A stretch of DNA of 64,000 bases from Zestosphaera sp. (GCA_038843015.1 JAWBSH010000003.1:133343-197342); one strand, 5' to 3'; positions 36,256 to 42,720 are shown, counted from the first letter of the stretch. Notes: generated from the letters alone by a model not told the origin. Made by a program: numbers and translations.

Positions 36256-36261
36256 GAACTC

Positions 36262-36548
36262 TTTGAGGGGGTTCGGGTTTCATGCTGTTTGATATCGACC
36301 CTTGGCTTCATTGACCTCAAGGCGCCTTTCATCGGAGACCTTATCATTGGTCTCTACTCTTTCAGGGTAACCCCAACTCGTAGCCCCTCACCAGTTTCAC
36401 GACTGCGGAGAAACCCCCACATACTGGCTTTAGACGCCCCACCCACTCGAGTCTTCACCACACACCCACATCGTGAGCGAGCTCAACCCACAATAAAGCA
36501 ACTTACATCAAACCCCTTACAAACCTTTACAAAACACAAAACAGTTGC
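36262..36548 (-). ncRNA. GC-rich structured intergenic element, copy C (same family as A/B/D)
   Basis: The reverse complement starts GCAACTGTTTTGTGTTTTGTAAAGGTTTGTAAGGGG, homologous to the copy D leader. The closing helix GGGGUUUG/CGAACCCC contains a G.U pair only on the minus-strand reading. Confidence 0.5.
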
Positions 36549-36585
36549 ACTAGGCAAGGCCAGTAATTCAGTGTAGACTACAATA

Positions 36586-37539
36586 TTATGATGTTTGTGA
36601 TGCGTATCTATTTATCTCTTCTTCAAGTATCTCTACCAGTCTTTGAGGCACTTCTTCAGGTCCTCTTGATGTCTGGAGTAGTAGCTCTAGAGCTGACTTA
36701 ATTCTTTCTTTAAGTGTTTCATCAAGTAGACTAAACTTATAGATTTGTTCTTGGACTAGGTGACTAAACTCTACACGAGCTCTCTCAGCTTGAAGTGGTA
36801 GCCCCCAACTCCTAGAGTAGAAGTATACGTACGCGATTAAGGTTAAGTCAACGAGATATGAGAAATCTACATGTTTAATCACTTCTTTCAAGAAAGAATT
36901 GAAGTAAATCGTTAAGAACTTCACGTAGTTCTTCAGAGAGACTACTAACGACGTTACACTTCTTCTTTCTATGGAACTCGTAAATGTCTTCACGTATCTT
37001 GATAGCATCTCACTAAGGTCGTTCATTTTTAACGAGGAGAGCGTGTCGTTGAAGTCTTGTAGCCTCTCGATTAGCTCCTTGTAAAAACCCCATTGAGGGA
37101 TATTGCCTTTAGTGAGTGATTGAAGAATTCTGAAAGCTGGTAAAACTAGGAAAACGTAGTTATGTAGATTCCTCTCAAGGAGGTCTCTAATGATTTGCTG
37201 TTCTCTCATGAAGTAGTAGAGAAACATGAACTGCTCTACATCTTTTTTTACTAGCTCATTAATAGCTATCCTTATTACGTCACCCTCTACAGTCTTTATT
37301 TCGAGTCCTTCGCTGGGGAGTCTTACCATCTCTCTCACACTCTTGAGAGGTATTCTCTTTATCTCGCCTAGCATCTCAAGCTTTTCTACTATTAATGAAG
37401 TGTCGCTAGTTCTCACGACACATTTGTACTCTATTTTGTTTTCATAGCATCTAGTAGACAACCTTAACTCCCTCCCTCCTTCAGACGTATTACGCCTTCG
37501 TAAACTTCTATGTCGCTTCTGCTCATTAAGAGCACCCAA
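36586..37539 (-). CDS. hypothetical protein (third gene of orphan operon); small beta-rich N-domain plus helical domain
   Basis: No recognisable motif. The probable real start is the TTG at 37461, 2 nt after the upstream stop and preceded by GGAGGGAGGGAG. The listed ATG at 37539 would overlap the upstream gene by 76 nt. Confidence 0.5.
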   Translation of the reverse strand: MGALNEQKRHRSLRRRNTSEGGRELRLSTRCYENKIEYKCVVRTSDTSLIVEKLEMLGEIKRIPLKSVREMVRLPSEGLEIKTVEGDVIRIAINELVKKDVEQFMFLYYFMREQQIIRDLLERNLHNYVFLVLPAFRILQSLTKGNIPQWGFYKELIERLQDFNDTLSSLKMNDLSEMLSRYVKTFTSSIERRSVTSLVVSLKNYVKFLTIYFNSFLKEVIKHVDFSYLVDLTLIAYVYFYSRSWGLPLQAERARVEFSHLVQEQIYKFSLLDETLKERIKSALELLLQTSRGPEEVPQRLVEILEEEINRYASQTS

Positions 37540-39668
37540 ATAAGCTGTACTGAGACCTCTGTAGTGAAGGGCAGCTCATTAACGTTGATGGATTTTTTCT
37601 CTGCGAGTTCCTGCAGTATGTAGTCACCGAATAGAGTCAGGTGTTTAGAAAGGTTGTTGAGGACTGCTAACCTTTCTAGAGTTAATGAAGTGTTTTCAAG
37701 TACTGTAGGTAATTCAGCAAGTAAGTTTTCAAAACCTTCCATGAGGTTTGCGGGAGACCGGATAGCGTCTCTGCTGAGCTTGGACCTAACAAGGTCTATA
37801 TTCCTCTTCATTCTTCCCAACAACATGTCTTCTATCTCCACGTCCCCTCCGTAAACAGCTTTTATTTTTAGGCTTACTTTCTCCACGTCCGTGATTAACG
37901 TGTTAATTAACTCGTCTATGATGGTGAGTAAGTTGTTGTACAAGATAGAATATCTTCTCAGGTAAGAAATCACTTCTAACTCACTCACTATTCCGGGGAT
38001 CTCGTCTAGCTCGTTATACAGTTTCTCTAAGACTGCTGAAGCTTCAAGTCCTTCTAGAGGCTTCTTCTTTAATTTCCTCACCTTGTCAGTAACTAGTCCT
38101 TTGGCTTGTATCAACCTATTATGTAGTTCCCTAAGCTTAGGTAGGGTTACGCTGATCATGTTATCATAGCTTTTTAGCATGAAGTATATATCTTCTAATA
38201 AAGATTTGCTAGACATGCAGTCTATCTTCTCTATTTTCTCAGTCTCTATAGGCGTTACAGACAATTGTTCTGACACGCTTATGTAAGTGTTTAGGACTAG
38301 GTTCTTAAGCACGGTGCAGCTCTCTCTCAATGTATTAGCTACTGAACCCACGTACTGAGGTATCTTATCAACTCTCTCTATCTCCTGAAATCTCTGAGCT
38401 CCTTCTCTGAGGCGGTCTCCGTAAGGAGTTGCTAAGACTAAAGCTACTACCTTCGAGTAGGTGATCAGTGCGTGAGCATACATAGACTTCATATGATCTG
38501 AGAGCTCAATCAACTGTTTTTCAGCATTCTTAAGAACGTCACTAACTAGCTGGAGCCTGCTTACGGGAACAAGCTTCTTTAAAATAATGGCTTTAGACAT
38601 CTCTAAGCTCCCCTTTATTACATTCAGTTTATTCTCGACTTCTTTAAGCGCGTCTTCAGACCATAAACCAGTCTTGCCCACTTCGTTATAGACTGTCGTG
38701 AGACTCTGCACCTCGCGTTCTAAGGCCCCCAGAACGGAACTCAAGTGTCTTCTTTTCTCTGACATTATTCTCAGATAAGCTACTGTCGCTGTAACAGAAG
38801 AGATTATTACGGCTACTAAGAAGGCTGAAGTCAAGTTATACTCTAAGTACCGGTAGAAAGGCTCTAGAAAAATTACAGACATAGAGATATAGAAAAGCCC
38901 GACAAACGTTAAGGAAGATATGAAGTATCTTATGACGATTATAGCTAAGTTGACTGTCTCCCTACCTACTAAGCTGTAAGATATTATGTTTATGAAGGAA
39001 GCTACAGTAAAGCTTATCAAGAGAGATACGTAGACTTGTGTGAACTCTGTTGCTGTGCCTATACTCATGTGAGGAACTCCTGTGAGGTCAGGTAACACGT
39101 AATAAAGACCTAAGAAGATTAGGAGCGAGAACATGAGGCTCATAATCCCTGAGAAATATGTTTTGAAGTTCTTGACAGTAACGACAGAGAGTGAGAGTAA
39201 CCATATAAACTCATAGACGCTGAGGCTAACCCCCCATAAGCCGTCTGTCAGAGCAAACGTAACGAAAAAGAATATAGGCAGGTGGACGCTCAACTCCCAA
39301 ATATTCAGTTTCGAGACTAGATTCCACGCAACCACAGCCGATAATAGGAGTGTTGAGAATAGCACGTAGAGACTCCCTAGCAACGGCAGCTTAATGCTGG
39401 GTAGTGAGAAAACTACGTTGAGGAGCAACATGTAGCTCACGAAGAGAGGCGAGAAAGCCAGCGAGTCATAGTAGGGTAAGTCCCTAGGATATATTAGGGG
39501 GGCGAGCAAAGTCAAGGTTATTAAAGCGCCTGCGAGCGGAATCCCTATAGGTTCCTTCATTAGGCCTAGCGCATAATTAGTCAGTACGATCCATAGAGAG
39601 ATTATGAGTGATGCCCAAATAACTTCTAGTCTAGACTTCTTAGCCCCGTCTAACTCCTGCCTGATCAT
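37464..39668 (-). CDS. hypothetical polytopic membrane protein (~10 TM) with ~430 aa cytoplasmic all-helical domain
   Basis: The hydrophobic N-terminal ~300 aa is followed by a long Leu/Glu/Lys-rich helical region. No nucleotide-binding or catalytic motifs were seen. The start overlaps the upstream stop (TAATG). Confidence 0.55.
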   Translation of the reverse strand: MIRQELDGAKKSRLEVIWASLIISLWIVLTNYALGLMKEPIGIPLAGALITLTLLAPLIYPRDLPYYDSLAFSPLFVSYMLLLNVVFSLPSIKLPLLGSLYVLFSTLLLSAVVAWNLVSKLNIWELSVHLPIFFFVTFALTDGLWGVSLSVYEFIWLLSLSVVTVKNFKTYFSGIMSLMFSLLIFLGLYYVLPDLTGVPHMSIGTATEFTQVYVSLLISFTVASFINIISYSLVGRETVNLAIIVIRYFISSLTFVGLFYISMSVIFLEPFYRYLEYNLTSAFLVAVIISSVTATVAYLRIMSEKRRHLSSVLGALEREVQSLTTVYNEVGKTGLWSEDALKEVENKLNVIKGSLEMSKAIILKKLVPVSRLQLVSDVLKNAEKQLIELSDHMKSMYAHALITYSKVVALVLATPYGDRLREGAQRFQEIERVDKIPQYVGSVANTLRESCTVLKNLVLNTYISVSEQLSVTPIETEKIEKIDCMSSKSLLEDIYFMLKSYDNMISVTLPKLRELHNRLIQAKGLVTDKVRKLKKKPLEGLEASAVLEKLYNELDEIPGIVSELEVISYLRRYSILYNNLLTIIDELINTLITDVEKVSLKIKAVYGGDVEIEDMLLGRMKRNIDLVRSKLSRDAIRSPANLMEGFENLLAELPTVLENTSLTLERLAVLNNLSKHLTLFGDYILQELAEKKSINVNELPFTTEVSVQLIWVLLMSRSDIEVYEGVIRLKEGGS

Positions 39669-40744
39669 TAAGACCCCCTCTCCGTCGTAGTCAGGAACTC
39701 TCTAGTCAGCTTCATTAAAGGAATCAATACTCTAAGGTCTTTTTCTTCCTCGCTTAGTATTGATGGAGCGTCCCAAACATCTTTTGACAACTTTATTATC
39801 AAGTCATCACTACTCTCACTAATAAAAATACGCACATAGTCTTCTGTCGTAGTTTTAGGAGTAAATGTTTTGTAGACTGCCCACCCACAGACCTTAACCA
39901 TTTCATTGATATTGACTTGATTTAGTAATTCCGCGTTGCCTTCTAGGTACGCGTATCCCATACTCCCAGCAAATATGGTTCCCCATGTAAGAAACTTAGC
40001 TAGTTGAGAAGCTCCAGCTAGGTTCTTTATTAGTAGTGAAGCCTCCTCGAGACTCAATAACGATACGAAGTATAAGTGTCTCATCTCTCTAGTGTCGGTT
40101 AGTAGGATTTCCTTGCCTAAGTTATCTGAATAAAGTCTTAAACCCCACCTAAGTAGTTCCTCAACTCCTTGAGGACTGAGATATCTATAGAATCTGTCAA
40201 TCCTTAGTACACTCACCCTATTAACTAGTCTTTCTTTCAAGACTTTAGCTAAAAACGTAACTAGGTTAAATCTATTAATGAGAGTTAGCTCTCTATCTAT
40301 TACGATCAAGGCTTCCGCCCTGCTAGCACTACTCTTGAGAGACCTGAAAACCTCAAGAGTCTTGTAAGCTACAGATAATTCCTTAGCTTGAACTCTAGAT
40401 ACCAGGAATAACTCCTCTACATCCTCAGTTATTAATGAGGGAAGAACACTCTCTTCGAAAGTTCCTTCTTGAGAAACTCCTTCTTTTAAGTAGCTTACCC
40501 ACATGCTATACTTATACGAGTCTTCAGAAGGTCTTGAAAGCACGTAACTATTAGGTTTAAAGAACTCTAGAGACTTTTCAGACCCTTCCTTAATTCTAAT
40601 AATTAGGTAACCTCTACTAACTAACGCCTCGCTTAAAATGTGTTCAATAAGTTGTGGCGCCATAATCACGGCTAACTTATTATGGTCTATGAAATCAAGA
40701 GAGCCCATAAAGCTCTCAAATATGTTCACAGACCATATACTCAC
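39668..40744 (-). CDS. hypothetical protein (first gene of orphan operon)
   Basis: 358 aa soluble protein with no recognisable motif. Coding is supported by its length and by coupling to the next gene. Confidence 0.5.
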   Translation of the reverse strand: MSIWSVNIFESFMGSLDFIDHNKLAVIMAPQLIEHILSEALVSRGYLIIRIKEGSEKSLEFFKPNSYVLSRPSEDSYKYSMWVSYLKEGVSQEGTFEESVLPSLITEDVEELFLVSRVQAKELSVAYKTLEVFRSLKSSASRAEALIVIDRELTLINRFNLVTFLAKVLKERLVNRVSVLRIDRFYRYLSPQGVEELLRWGLRLYSDNLGKEILLTDTREMRHLYFVSLLSLEEASLLIKNLAGASQLAKFLTWGTIFAGSMGYAYLEGNAELLNQVNINEMVKVCGWAVYKTFTPKTTTEDYVRIFISESSDDLIIKLSKDVWDAPSILSEEEKDLRVLIPLMKLTREFLTTTERGS

Positions 40745-40877
40745 TAAAACTCACCAACCCTATTAATATACTCGTAATTTCTATAAATAATCTTATTGAA
40801 CTCTTTAGGCCGCGTTGATCGCTACATCTAGGTACTTATTTTTAGTTTTCCTTAACTTGCTAGATTATGCGGAAGAA

Positions 40878-42168: not shown

Positions 42169-42720
42169 TCAGCTTTCAGCGCTCTCCTTTCCCTTTAGCA
42201 ACTTACTTAGGAGACTTATGATCGTGTCTTCCTTACTTAATGGGGGCTTCACAGGCTCTCCTTTCAGAAACTTGCTGACTCTCTCTGGGAATGACGGGAC
42301 AATATTTTTTAAGTCTATATCGCTTAAGACTCCATCATATTTCTCTTTATAGGCTACCTTACCGTCAATCCAGCTCAGGAGAAGTGTTGTAGGGGATGAG
42401 TGAACATCAAAATATGTGAAAGTAGCTGAAGCAACTAACGACTCACAATCTCTAGCGAACCAATTACAGAGGACTATATAGAAACTAAACTCATTACTTT
42501 CACTACTTAAGCTCCTGACGAAAGGGAACCAGTATATGTCGTATCTCCTGCACGCGTGACACTTAGCATTATCAAAATACATTACCGCGTACTTATCTCT
42601 AGGTATGAAGGGGTCTATCCCCTCTATATTCAAATAAACCCACGTGTTTTCTCCTCTCAAATATTTATAGATGCCGTGTTTGTTTTCAGGAGTTATCTCT
42701 CTGAACTTCGAGTCACTCAC
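42169..42720 (-). CDS. thioredoxin-fold-like protein with CxxC motif
   Basis: The CHAC motif lies after a beta-strand-like VMYFDNAK segment. The gene is 13 nt downstream of sufS. Confidence 0.4.
   Translation of the reverse strand: MSDSKFREITPENKHGIYKYLRGENTWVYLNIEGIDPFIPRDKYAVMYFDNAKCHACRRYDIYWFPFVRSLSSESNEFSFYIVLCNWFARDCESLVASATFTYFDVHSSPTTLLLSWIDGKVAYKEKYDGVLSDIDLKNIVPSFPERVSKFLKGEPVKPPLSKEDTIISLLSKLLKGKESAES

Follow-up and report, generated by a model that had tools for sequence, protein, structure and literature searches.

A Co-Conserved Gene Trio of Zestosphaera-Related Desulfurococcaceae That May Encode a Membrane-Anchored, Non-Enzymatic Complex

Results

Organization of the Locus

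The window analyzed in this study is a stretch of 64,000 nucleotides from Zestosphaera sp. (GCA_038843015.1, JAWBSH010000003.1:133343-197342), in which three consecutive genes, here named A, B and C, encode a soluble protein, a protein with ten transmembrane (TM) helices and a second soluble protein, respectively (Table 1). Both junctions between the genes are tight. The stop codon of A (TAA, 39670-39668) and the ATG of B (39668-39666) have base 39668 in common, giving a TAATG overlap with GGAGAGGGGG upstream of it in the sequence. The stop codon of B (TAA, 37466-37464) is followed at a spacing of 2 nt by the TTG of C (37461-37459), and the Shine-Dalgarno-like GGAGGGAGGGAG (37479-37468) lies ahead of this start. 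Gene A has a Shine-Dalgarno-like GGTGA motif 5-9 nt upstream of its GTG. All homologues of C show M-[ST]-T-[RK]-C at the TTG position, several using ATG; since they begin there, the 291-aa form of C is the right one. An earlier model-made annotation of this DNA (the preliminary description) had proposed three tightly coupled minus-strand genes with a TAATG overlap at 39668 and a start of C at the TTG at 37461, and both proposals are borne out by the open reading frames (ORFs), the sequence and the homologues. In eight other lineages the junction gaps range from -14 to +7 nt.

Among the three genes, a box resembling a TATA element with a B recognition element (BRE) is conserved in front of A only. 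An alignment of the upstream regions of six lineages shows that conservation spans the AAGA-TTTATAGA box and the GGTGA-containing leader up to the start codon of A but does not extend farther upstream. This box would work as the promoter of the trio.

Table 1. Coordinates of the three genes, of the protein regions they encode and of the promoter-like element, counted from the first letter of the window.
Feature	Position (nt)	Strand	Description	Basis
Gene A	39668-40744	(-)	GTG start, 358 aa, soluble	ORF list and sequence
Gene B	37464-39668	(-)	ATG start, 734 aa, ten TM helices and a cytoplasmic helical part of ~435 aa	
Gene C	36586-37461	(-)	TTG start, 291 aa, soluble; inside ORF 36586-37539 (-)	
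Promoter-like element	40781-40797	(-)	AATAAGA (BRE-like), then TTATTTATAG (TATA box), ~40 nt upstream of A start codon	
A residues ~21-210	40115-40684	(-)	Rossmann-like alpha/beta domain, without glycine-rich loop or P-loop	AlphaFold2 (AF2) model
A residues 211-358			C-terminal half; best-conserved motif FK[DN]L.G...FAKF..WG...Y..EG	Homologue alignment
B residues 1-297	38778-39668	(-)	Membrane domain, ten TM helices, N-in/C-in	Hydropathy and AF2
B residues 298-640	37749-38777	(-)	Cytoplasmic helical stalk, least conserved part of B	AF2 (pLDDT mostly 85-95)
B residues 641-734	37464-37748	(-)	Last long helix and winged-helix-like C-terminal head, most conserved stretch of B	
C residues 1-68	37258-37461	(-)	By hydrophobic periodicity, predicted beta-rich, possibly PH-like N-domain with invariant C5 and C14; remainder predicted helical	

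Conservation of the Trio

Word-based searches returned 10-21 clusters per protein, all of them from Zestosphaera or from metagenome-assembled genomes (MAGs) of Desulfurococcaceae. An exhaustive profile search with B among 1.84 billion representatives gave nine clusters, six of which are full-length (716-731 aa, 16-24% identity). Every B homologue with readable flanks has an A-like protein (~300-350 aa) on one side and a C-like protein (283-300 aa) on the other, and these could be aligned with A and C. For a survey of loci, Desulfurococcaceae loci were fetched via the neighboring HAD gene and then searched with HMMs, which left 21 loci with enough flank. The trio is found in 16 of these, some of them very divergent (B scores of ~100-125 bits), and its carriers include Zestosphaera tikiterensis NZ3, Ca. 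Zestomicrobium tamdykulense, hot-spring MAGs and deep-sea vent MAGs. Overall, the order A-B-C is retained in ~20 Desulfurococcaceae lineages down to ~15-25% identity, with junctions that overlap or nearly abut at all but one. Among the loci read, none has only one or two of the trio genes, except at contig ends. The phyletic and neighborhood comparison, on which the operon reading of the preliminary description could have failed, thus came out in favor of co-conservation.

In comparison with the 85%-identical lineage L045, the nearest relative with a sequence, dN/dS amounts to 0.074 (A), 0.097 (B) and 0.155 (C), and to 0.04-0.10 for the neighboring genes. Such low values mark all three as real genes on which purifying selection acts. 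At greater distances the trio diverges much faster than its neighbors, with equal pace among its members: between loci L008 and L009, identity is 96% for GDH, 81% for the M29 peptidase and 73% for the alpha subunit of indolepyruvate oxidoreductase (IOR), vs. 33, 35 and 32% for A, B and C, respectively. A compositional deviation, for which the preliminary description had proposed a check, is present in part: A and C have a GC content ~2 standard deviations lower than the mean of the window, whereas their codon usage does not stand out from the window and is host-like. No relatives were found on IMG/VR viral contigs.

Searches Against Known Families

Searches of Pfam, NCBIfam, PADLOC and PHROGs with A, B and C gave nothing above noise, in the case of PADLOC at E-values up to 1, and individual scans of 10-26 diverse homologues yielded only scattered sub-threshold matches, mostly of the coiled-coil type. 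Walker A, tubulin T4, CxxC and HExxH motifs occur in none of the 23-26 homologues; G.G..G appears sporadically (3 of 23 A and 7 of 26 B sequences), and a single homologue of B has a Walker-B-like pattern. Neither the three proteins nor their homologues match Snf7, CdvA, PRC or AAA, and on this ground membership of the Cdv/ESCRT cell-division system, which would be marked by Snf7 (ESCRT-III), Vps4 or CdvA (PRC barrel with coiled coil) domains, was rejected. No paralogy was found among A, B and C, and the literature on Zestosphaera and on uncharacterized archaeal membrane proteins holds nothing resembling the trio. The preliminary description had recognized no domain or motif in any of the three proteins; sequence searches and, for A and B, fold searches with Foldseek agree, and a clear profile or structure match to a characterized family, which would have overturned its view, was looked for and did not appear. 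By the tests used, the trio is without a characterized relative at the level of sequence and predicted structure.

Architecture of Protein B

Hydropathy and the AF2 model concur in placing ten TM helices within residues 8-297 of B (8-33, 42-59, 74-88, 91-119, 123-140, 151-164, 168-191, 206-234, 241-266 and 270-297 in the model). Counted on the sequence, lysines and arginines in the loops number ~13 on the inner side vs. 3 on the outer side, and this excess places both termini, and hence the 435-aa helical domain, in the cytoplasm. The ~10 TM helices and all-helical cytoplasmic domain of ~430 aa that the preliminary description had read from the sequence therefore stand. Mean pLDDT of the model is 79.9, with 85-95 in the cytoplasmic part. 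TM10, starting at residue 270, runs on as one helix to residue 333 and leads into a series of long helices of 22-50 residues each (338-363, 369-412, 433-469, 490-534, 563-606, 610-631 and 642-691). No internal repeats were found in the stalk. The C-terminal head follows with a beta strand (693-695), a helix (703-716) and a hairpin (720-723/726-729) at pLDDT ~70-80. Judged by this predicted order of secondary structure elements, the head would be winged-helix-like; whole-chain Foldseek of B returned no winged-helix match. Its recognition helix, read from the sequence, is hydrophobic and not basic.

Within B, TM1-7, the outward loop and the C-terminal head are the best-conserved parts, and TM8-10 and the stalk the least conserved. 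Invariant in an alignment of 26 sequences are P199, C451, C484, Y683 and P700. P199 lies in the motif [VL]P[HY] of the outward TM7-TM8 loop, and apart from it and the start Met the membrane domain has no invariant position. Y683 and P700 lie in the most conserved stretch of B (residues 641-734), as does INVNELPFTTEV. Foldseek searches with the B model gave a best E-value of 0.65 with a TM-score <0.2 against the PDB and no significant match in BFVD. Profile searches of the PDB with narrow and broad B alignments returned only designed or natural coiled coils, as noise, and the recurrent sub-threshold Pfam matches are to long-helix families such as ATG17-like and Baculo_PEP_C.

Architecture of Protein A

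Neither A nor C has hydrophobic segments in hydropathy analysis. The AF2 model of A has a mean pLDDT of 56, with ~80 in residues 20-70 and 100-150 and <50 in residues 213-358. Its N-terminal half is modeled as a three-layer alpha/beta fold with a mostly parallel sheet, and the best PDB matches found by Foldseek are FlhG/MinD, TubZ and FtsZ (E = 1e-4 to 1e-3, ~200-250 aligned columns, TM-scores of 0.35-0.41; the unreliable half of the model accounts in part for these low values). The Rossmann folds of SDR, NmrA and flavoproteins come close to these scores. Two residues, W82 and N160, are invariant in 23 homologues.

The hallmarks of the two NTPase classes are missing from these homologues. None of the 23 has the tubulin T4 signature GGGTG[ST]G, even in a loosened form, or the deviant Walker A motif KGGxGK[ST] with Walker B of ParA/MinD. 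Glycine is absent from the segment after strand 1, LAVIMAPQLIEH, so that there is no T1-type glycine-rich loop, and none follows strand 4 either. Pfam Tubulin, FtsZ_C, ParA, CbiA and AAA_31 do not match A or diverse A homologues, PDB profile searches with narrow and broad A alignments gave zero matches, and hhalign of A with E. coli FtsZ gave a probability of 0.1% (the FtsZ sequence was entered by hand). In the divergent FtsZ-like families described by Makarova and Koonin (PMC2875224), the GTP loop is kept in all. Given the missing glycine loops and tubulin signature and the lack of FtsZ profile similarity, the model indicates that A is a Rossmann-like protein lacking a nucleotide loop and no demonstrable member of either class. 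We have thus rejected A as a member of the FtsZ/tubulin family, whose signature loop and profile similarity it lacks, and as a ParA/MinD (SIMIBI) ATPase, for which both Walker motifs and a Pfam match are missing.

Architecture of Protein C

Hydrophobic periodicity over the alignment of C shows a beta pattern in residues 6-67 (six or seven segments) and an alpha pattern from residue 69 onwards, which fits the beta-rich N-domain followed by helices proposed in the preliminary description. The N-terminus is thus predicted to be beta-rich and possibly PH-like; the latter part of the proposal is compatible with the pattern but gained no Pfam or PDB match, as Pfam bPH, PH and GRAM matched none of 10 diverse C members and PDB profile searches with narrow and broad alignments returned only noise. 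The invariant residues of C are C5, C14 and W124, the last in the motif KGNIPxW.

Four cysteines never vary over 24-26 homologues of 14-25% identity, namely C451 and C484 of B (~38215-38317) and C5 and C14 of C (~37420-37449). The first pair lies in the stalk of B and the second in a probable N-terminal hairpin of C. Disulfides are common in the crenarchaeal cytoplasm, and the four residues could form disulfide staples or a shared metal site.

Neighboring Genes and Intergenic Regions

In the window, the trio is flanked upstream by an Aminotran_5 (SufS-like) gene and downstream by genes for a HAD hydrolase and IOR, in agreement with the housekeeping flanks (sufS, HAD phosphatase) named in the preliminary description. 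Other lineages have GDH, the M29 peptidase and ribH upstream and HAD and IOR downstream. In most of the distant lineages the gene directly upstream of the trio is ribH (DMRL synthase), with 60-260 bp between ribH and A. In the distant lineages (L007-L009, L011, L023-L027), a cluster of radical-SAM, LplA-like, small-ORF, HAD and radical-SAM genes is located between the trio and IOR; the radical-SAM and LplA-like members are probably the lipoylation genes LipS1, LplA and LipS2. The window lineage has HAD next to C with no lipoylation-type cluster in between.

Beside the SufS-like gene, an ORF of 183 aa (42169-42720, minus strand) carries a CHAC (CxxC) motif. It is kept in L045 and L005, has a dN/dS of 0.066, carries no recorded Pfam family and may encode a thioredoxin-like protein. 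The closest proteins bear the label 'Zestosphaera sp.' at NCBI. The HAD protein of the window, however, shares 86% identity with its counterpart in Ca. Zestomicrobium tamdykulense and only 51% with the one in Z. tikiterensis NZ3, so that the window organism and the type Zestosphaera probably belong to different genera.

The convergent genes C and HAD are separated by a spacer of 330 bp (36256-36585) that has a GC content of 0.49, compared with a window value of ~0.43, and a G-rich minus strand. The preliminary description had placed a structured RNA element, also called C, at the 3' side of the operon. Its identity as an RNA gained no support: the spacer has no Rfam match and is missing in L045, where the gap is 42 bp, and with L005 it shares only two patches of ~35 nt. 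It looks like a lineage-specific insertion outside the operon. In the insert between B and C in Z. tikiterensis NZ3 (L018, 6515-6750), which is taken up below, a GC-rich part of ~150 nt precedes an AT-rich stretch that resembles a promoter; the insert neither matches Rfam nor is similar to the spacer of the window.

Discussion

A Proposed Membrane-Anchored Complex

In this study, we propose that the products of the three genes assemble into one stoichiometric, non-enzymatic, membrane-anchored complex that is inherited vertically and specific to a Zestosphaera-containing group of Desulfurococcaceae, a proposal to which we give an even chance. Here, B would be the scaffold, whose ten-helix membrane module exposes one short conserved loop to the outside, with the variable helical stalk of ~340 residues linking this module to the conserved, winged-helix-like cytoplasmic head. 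A and C would be produced from one message by coupled translation and would dock on B, most likely on the conserved head or the membrane-proximal part. The assembly might then serve as a passive tether or organizer at the inner membrane face, or convey to the distal head which state the membrane module is in, and it would be neither an enzyme nor a primary transporter nor a defense system. That it acts as a scaffold or tether on the inner side of the membrane is a reading in which our confidence is much below that in the complex and its architecture.

The lack of catalytic and NTP-binding motifs, together with the very few invariant residues in 23-26 members, argues that the three proteins are not enzymes. 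Since no family match emerged and co-conservation is strong, the picture of a membrane scaffold with two soluble, non-enzymatic partners drawn in the preliminary description still stands. Among the roles it had listed, namely a structural, membrane-remodeling, sensing or defense-type complex, defense is disfavored by synteny, codon usage and dN/dS.

Several observations weigh against our proposal. Near HAD, the trio is missing from five of the 21 loci (L019, L028, L029, L032 and L035), which in a neighbor-joining tree of HAD form a clade of four plus one separate branch; in that clade it is dispensable. In Z. tikiterensis an insert of ~235 bp separates B from C, the sole exception to the tight junctions seen, which shows that not every lineage keeps the genes strictly coupled. 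Between the distance matrices of the three proteins the correlation is close (r = 0.975-0.981; partial correlation controlling for HAD 0.83-0.87), yet this is only suggestive because the correlation is inflated by shared phylogeny and saturation. The C-terminal half of A is its best-conserved part and at the same time poorly modeled. Finally, the binding of A, B and C to each other and its sites are inferred, and the scaffold role is essentially an argument from the absence of enzymes and motifs. Two of the loci without the trio contain an ORF of 316-329 aa with no Pfam match at the syntenic site between ribH and a radical-SAM gene (L029, 6134-7084; L035, 6023-7012); it was rejected as a diverged A or C, having no similarity to either.

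Alternative Explanations

The main rival, although we regard it as improbable, is a signaling device in which the membrane module of B senses the state of the membrane or envelope, or a small ligand, and relays it via the helices to the head, with A and C as outputs or adaptors. Polytopic sensors with helical transmitter domains would be its functional analogues. The conservation of both ends of B (TM1-7 with the VPH loop, and the head) around a variable helical connector suits a sensor equally well, as does the continuation of TM10 in a single helix of 64 residues. In addition, residues 334-635 of B align with the cytoplasmic domain of methyl-accepting chemotaxis proteins (MCPs; E = 0.037) and with an NCBIfam histidine-kinase model (E = 0.022). 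Both alignments are non-significant, however, the hairpin-tip motif of MCPs is absent, and the matches look like noise from coiled-coil composition. HAMP, HisKA, HATPase_c, MCP-signal, PAS and receiver domains were found neither in B and its 26 homologues (Pfam and NCBIfam) nor in the neighbors of B, and the hydrophobic recognition helix of the head makes a DNA-binding output unlikely. As a two-component or chemoreceptor protein, B was rejected for want of HAMP, HisKA, HATPase_c and MCP-signal domains.

We see only a small chance that the trio serves in the uptake or conduction of small molecules, with the membrane domain of B binding or conducting a solute in remote likeness to the S-components of energy-coupling factor (ECF) transporters, and the stalk, A and C acting as a gate or regulator. 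In Foldseek, ~200 residues of the TM domain match viral models resembling a 'vitamin uptake transporter' (probability 0.97-0.98, E ~0.5, target-normalized TM-score 0.44-0.51) and, at a target-normalized TM-score of 0.35, ThiT, but the local matches to S-component-like folds are non-significant (E = 0.5-4) and EcfT or EcfA partners are not encoded nearby. The position of ribH directly upstream of the trio in most of the distant lineages would also be in line with uptake, yet this adjacency is lost in the window lineage, and elsewhere ribH keeps its distance from A. A single invariant residue in the membrane domain, P199, is likewise unlike a ligand-binding transporter. On these grounds B was rejected as an ECF S-component.

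A lineage-specific system for cytoskeletal positioning or membrane remodeling, in which B recruits A as a degenerate relative of FtsZ/TubZ or ParA/MinD and C acts as a PH-like adaptor, appears very unlikely to us. The best PDB folds for A and its FtsZ-like size speak for such a system, but the near-equal scores of other Rossmann folds, the absence of tubulin and Walker A signatures from all A homologues, the negligible hhalign probability and the lack of Pfam matches to Tubulin, FtsZ_C, ParA or CbiA speak against it. An elaborate form of this idea, and a long shot, would make the trio an undescribed membrane-anchored tethering or cytoskeletal machine of Desulfurococcaceae, in which B is a transmembrane stalk, A a pseudo-NTPase of FtsZ/TubZ- or ParA-like ancestry and C a PH-like adaptor, with the four cysteines as disulfide staples or a metal site, and which organizes the envelope, the division site, DNA or the contact with a nanoarchaeal symbiont at the inner membrane face.

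It is highly improbable that the trio consists of hypothetical genes with unrelated functions that became neighbors by chance: their order, orientation and close spacing have been kept in ~20 lineages at 15-25% protein identity while the flanks were rearranged (SufS-like gene vs. M29 and ribH upstream, lipoylation genes inserted downstream), and apart from contig ends the genes occur as a full trio. Least probable of all is an anti-virus defense or mobile accessory module, to which the narrow, patchy distribution and the fast divergence over long distances (GDH 96% vs. 32-35% for A, B and C between L008 and L009) would lend themselves, since there is no PADLOC or PHROGs match, no viral contig and no nuclease, NTPase or protease effector, and since the trio keeps the same chromosomal neighborhood among housekeeping genes in all lineages, with typical codon usage and neighbor-like dN/dS.

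Implications

If A, B and C do form one complex, it would be a membrane-associated assembly without a detectable characterized relative, confined to little-studied hyperthermophilic archaea. These include Z. tikiterensis, which has been described as a host of a nanoarchaeal symbiont. B, with a fairly confident model (pLDDT 80) that is unmatched in the PDB, is a clearly delimited object for structural and cell-biological studies of archaeal 'dark matter', and the clean co-conservation adds to the value of the trio for experiments. Since archaeal genomes often contain conserved hypothetical operons that are limited to one lineage, and no specific process is indicated here, we consider the trio a solid lead and not a surprise.

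Comparison With Known Systems

Partial likenesses to known systems exist for each of the three proteins. In the case of A, the N-domain as modeled would share the three-layer alpha/beta architecture of FtsZ/TubZ and ParA/MinD, which provide its best Foldseek matches (E ~1e-4), and the overall size is near that of FtsZ. A differs from them by the lack of T1/T4 glycine loops, Walker A/B motifs and sequence-profile similarity; its C-terminal half is not confidently modeled. In the case of C, ~68 residues of predicted beta segments followed by a predicted amphipathic helix would reproduce the order of elements in PH-like domains (bacterial YdbT/bPH_2, GRAM, GLUE), whereas a Pfam or PDB sequence match is missing and two invariant cysteines (C5 and C14) are not a feature of PH domains.

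The stalk of B is all-helical as in the helical-bundle scaffolds of alpha-catenin/vinculin (M domains), PRC1 (spectrin-like domain), Atg17 and MCPs (cytoplasmic hairpins), which are the source of its weak top PDB and Pfam matches. Every one of these matches is non-significant (Foldseek E >0.6 and TM-score <0.2; Pfam below the gathering threshold) and is explained by coiled-coil composition. A further parallel is given by winged-helix modules that terminate helical scaffolds, such as the C-terminal winged-helix domain (C-WHD) of kleisin, the WH-B of cullin, ESCRT-II and the C-terminal winged helix of CdvB. B is set apart from them by its integral position in the membrane, by the lack of a sequence or Foldseek match and by a neighborhood without SMC, cullin-partner or ESCRT-III genes. 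In common with these modules, B would have a long helical scaffold capped by a highly conserved beta-helix-beta-hairpin, and a hydrophobic recognition helix such as that predicted for its head is a feature of protein-binding winged-helix domains.

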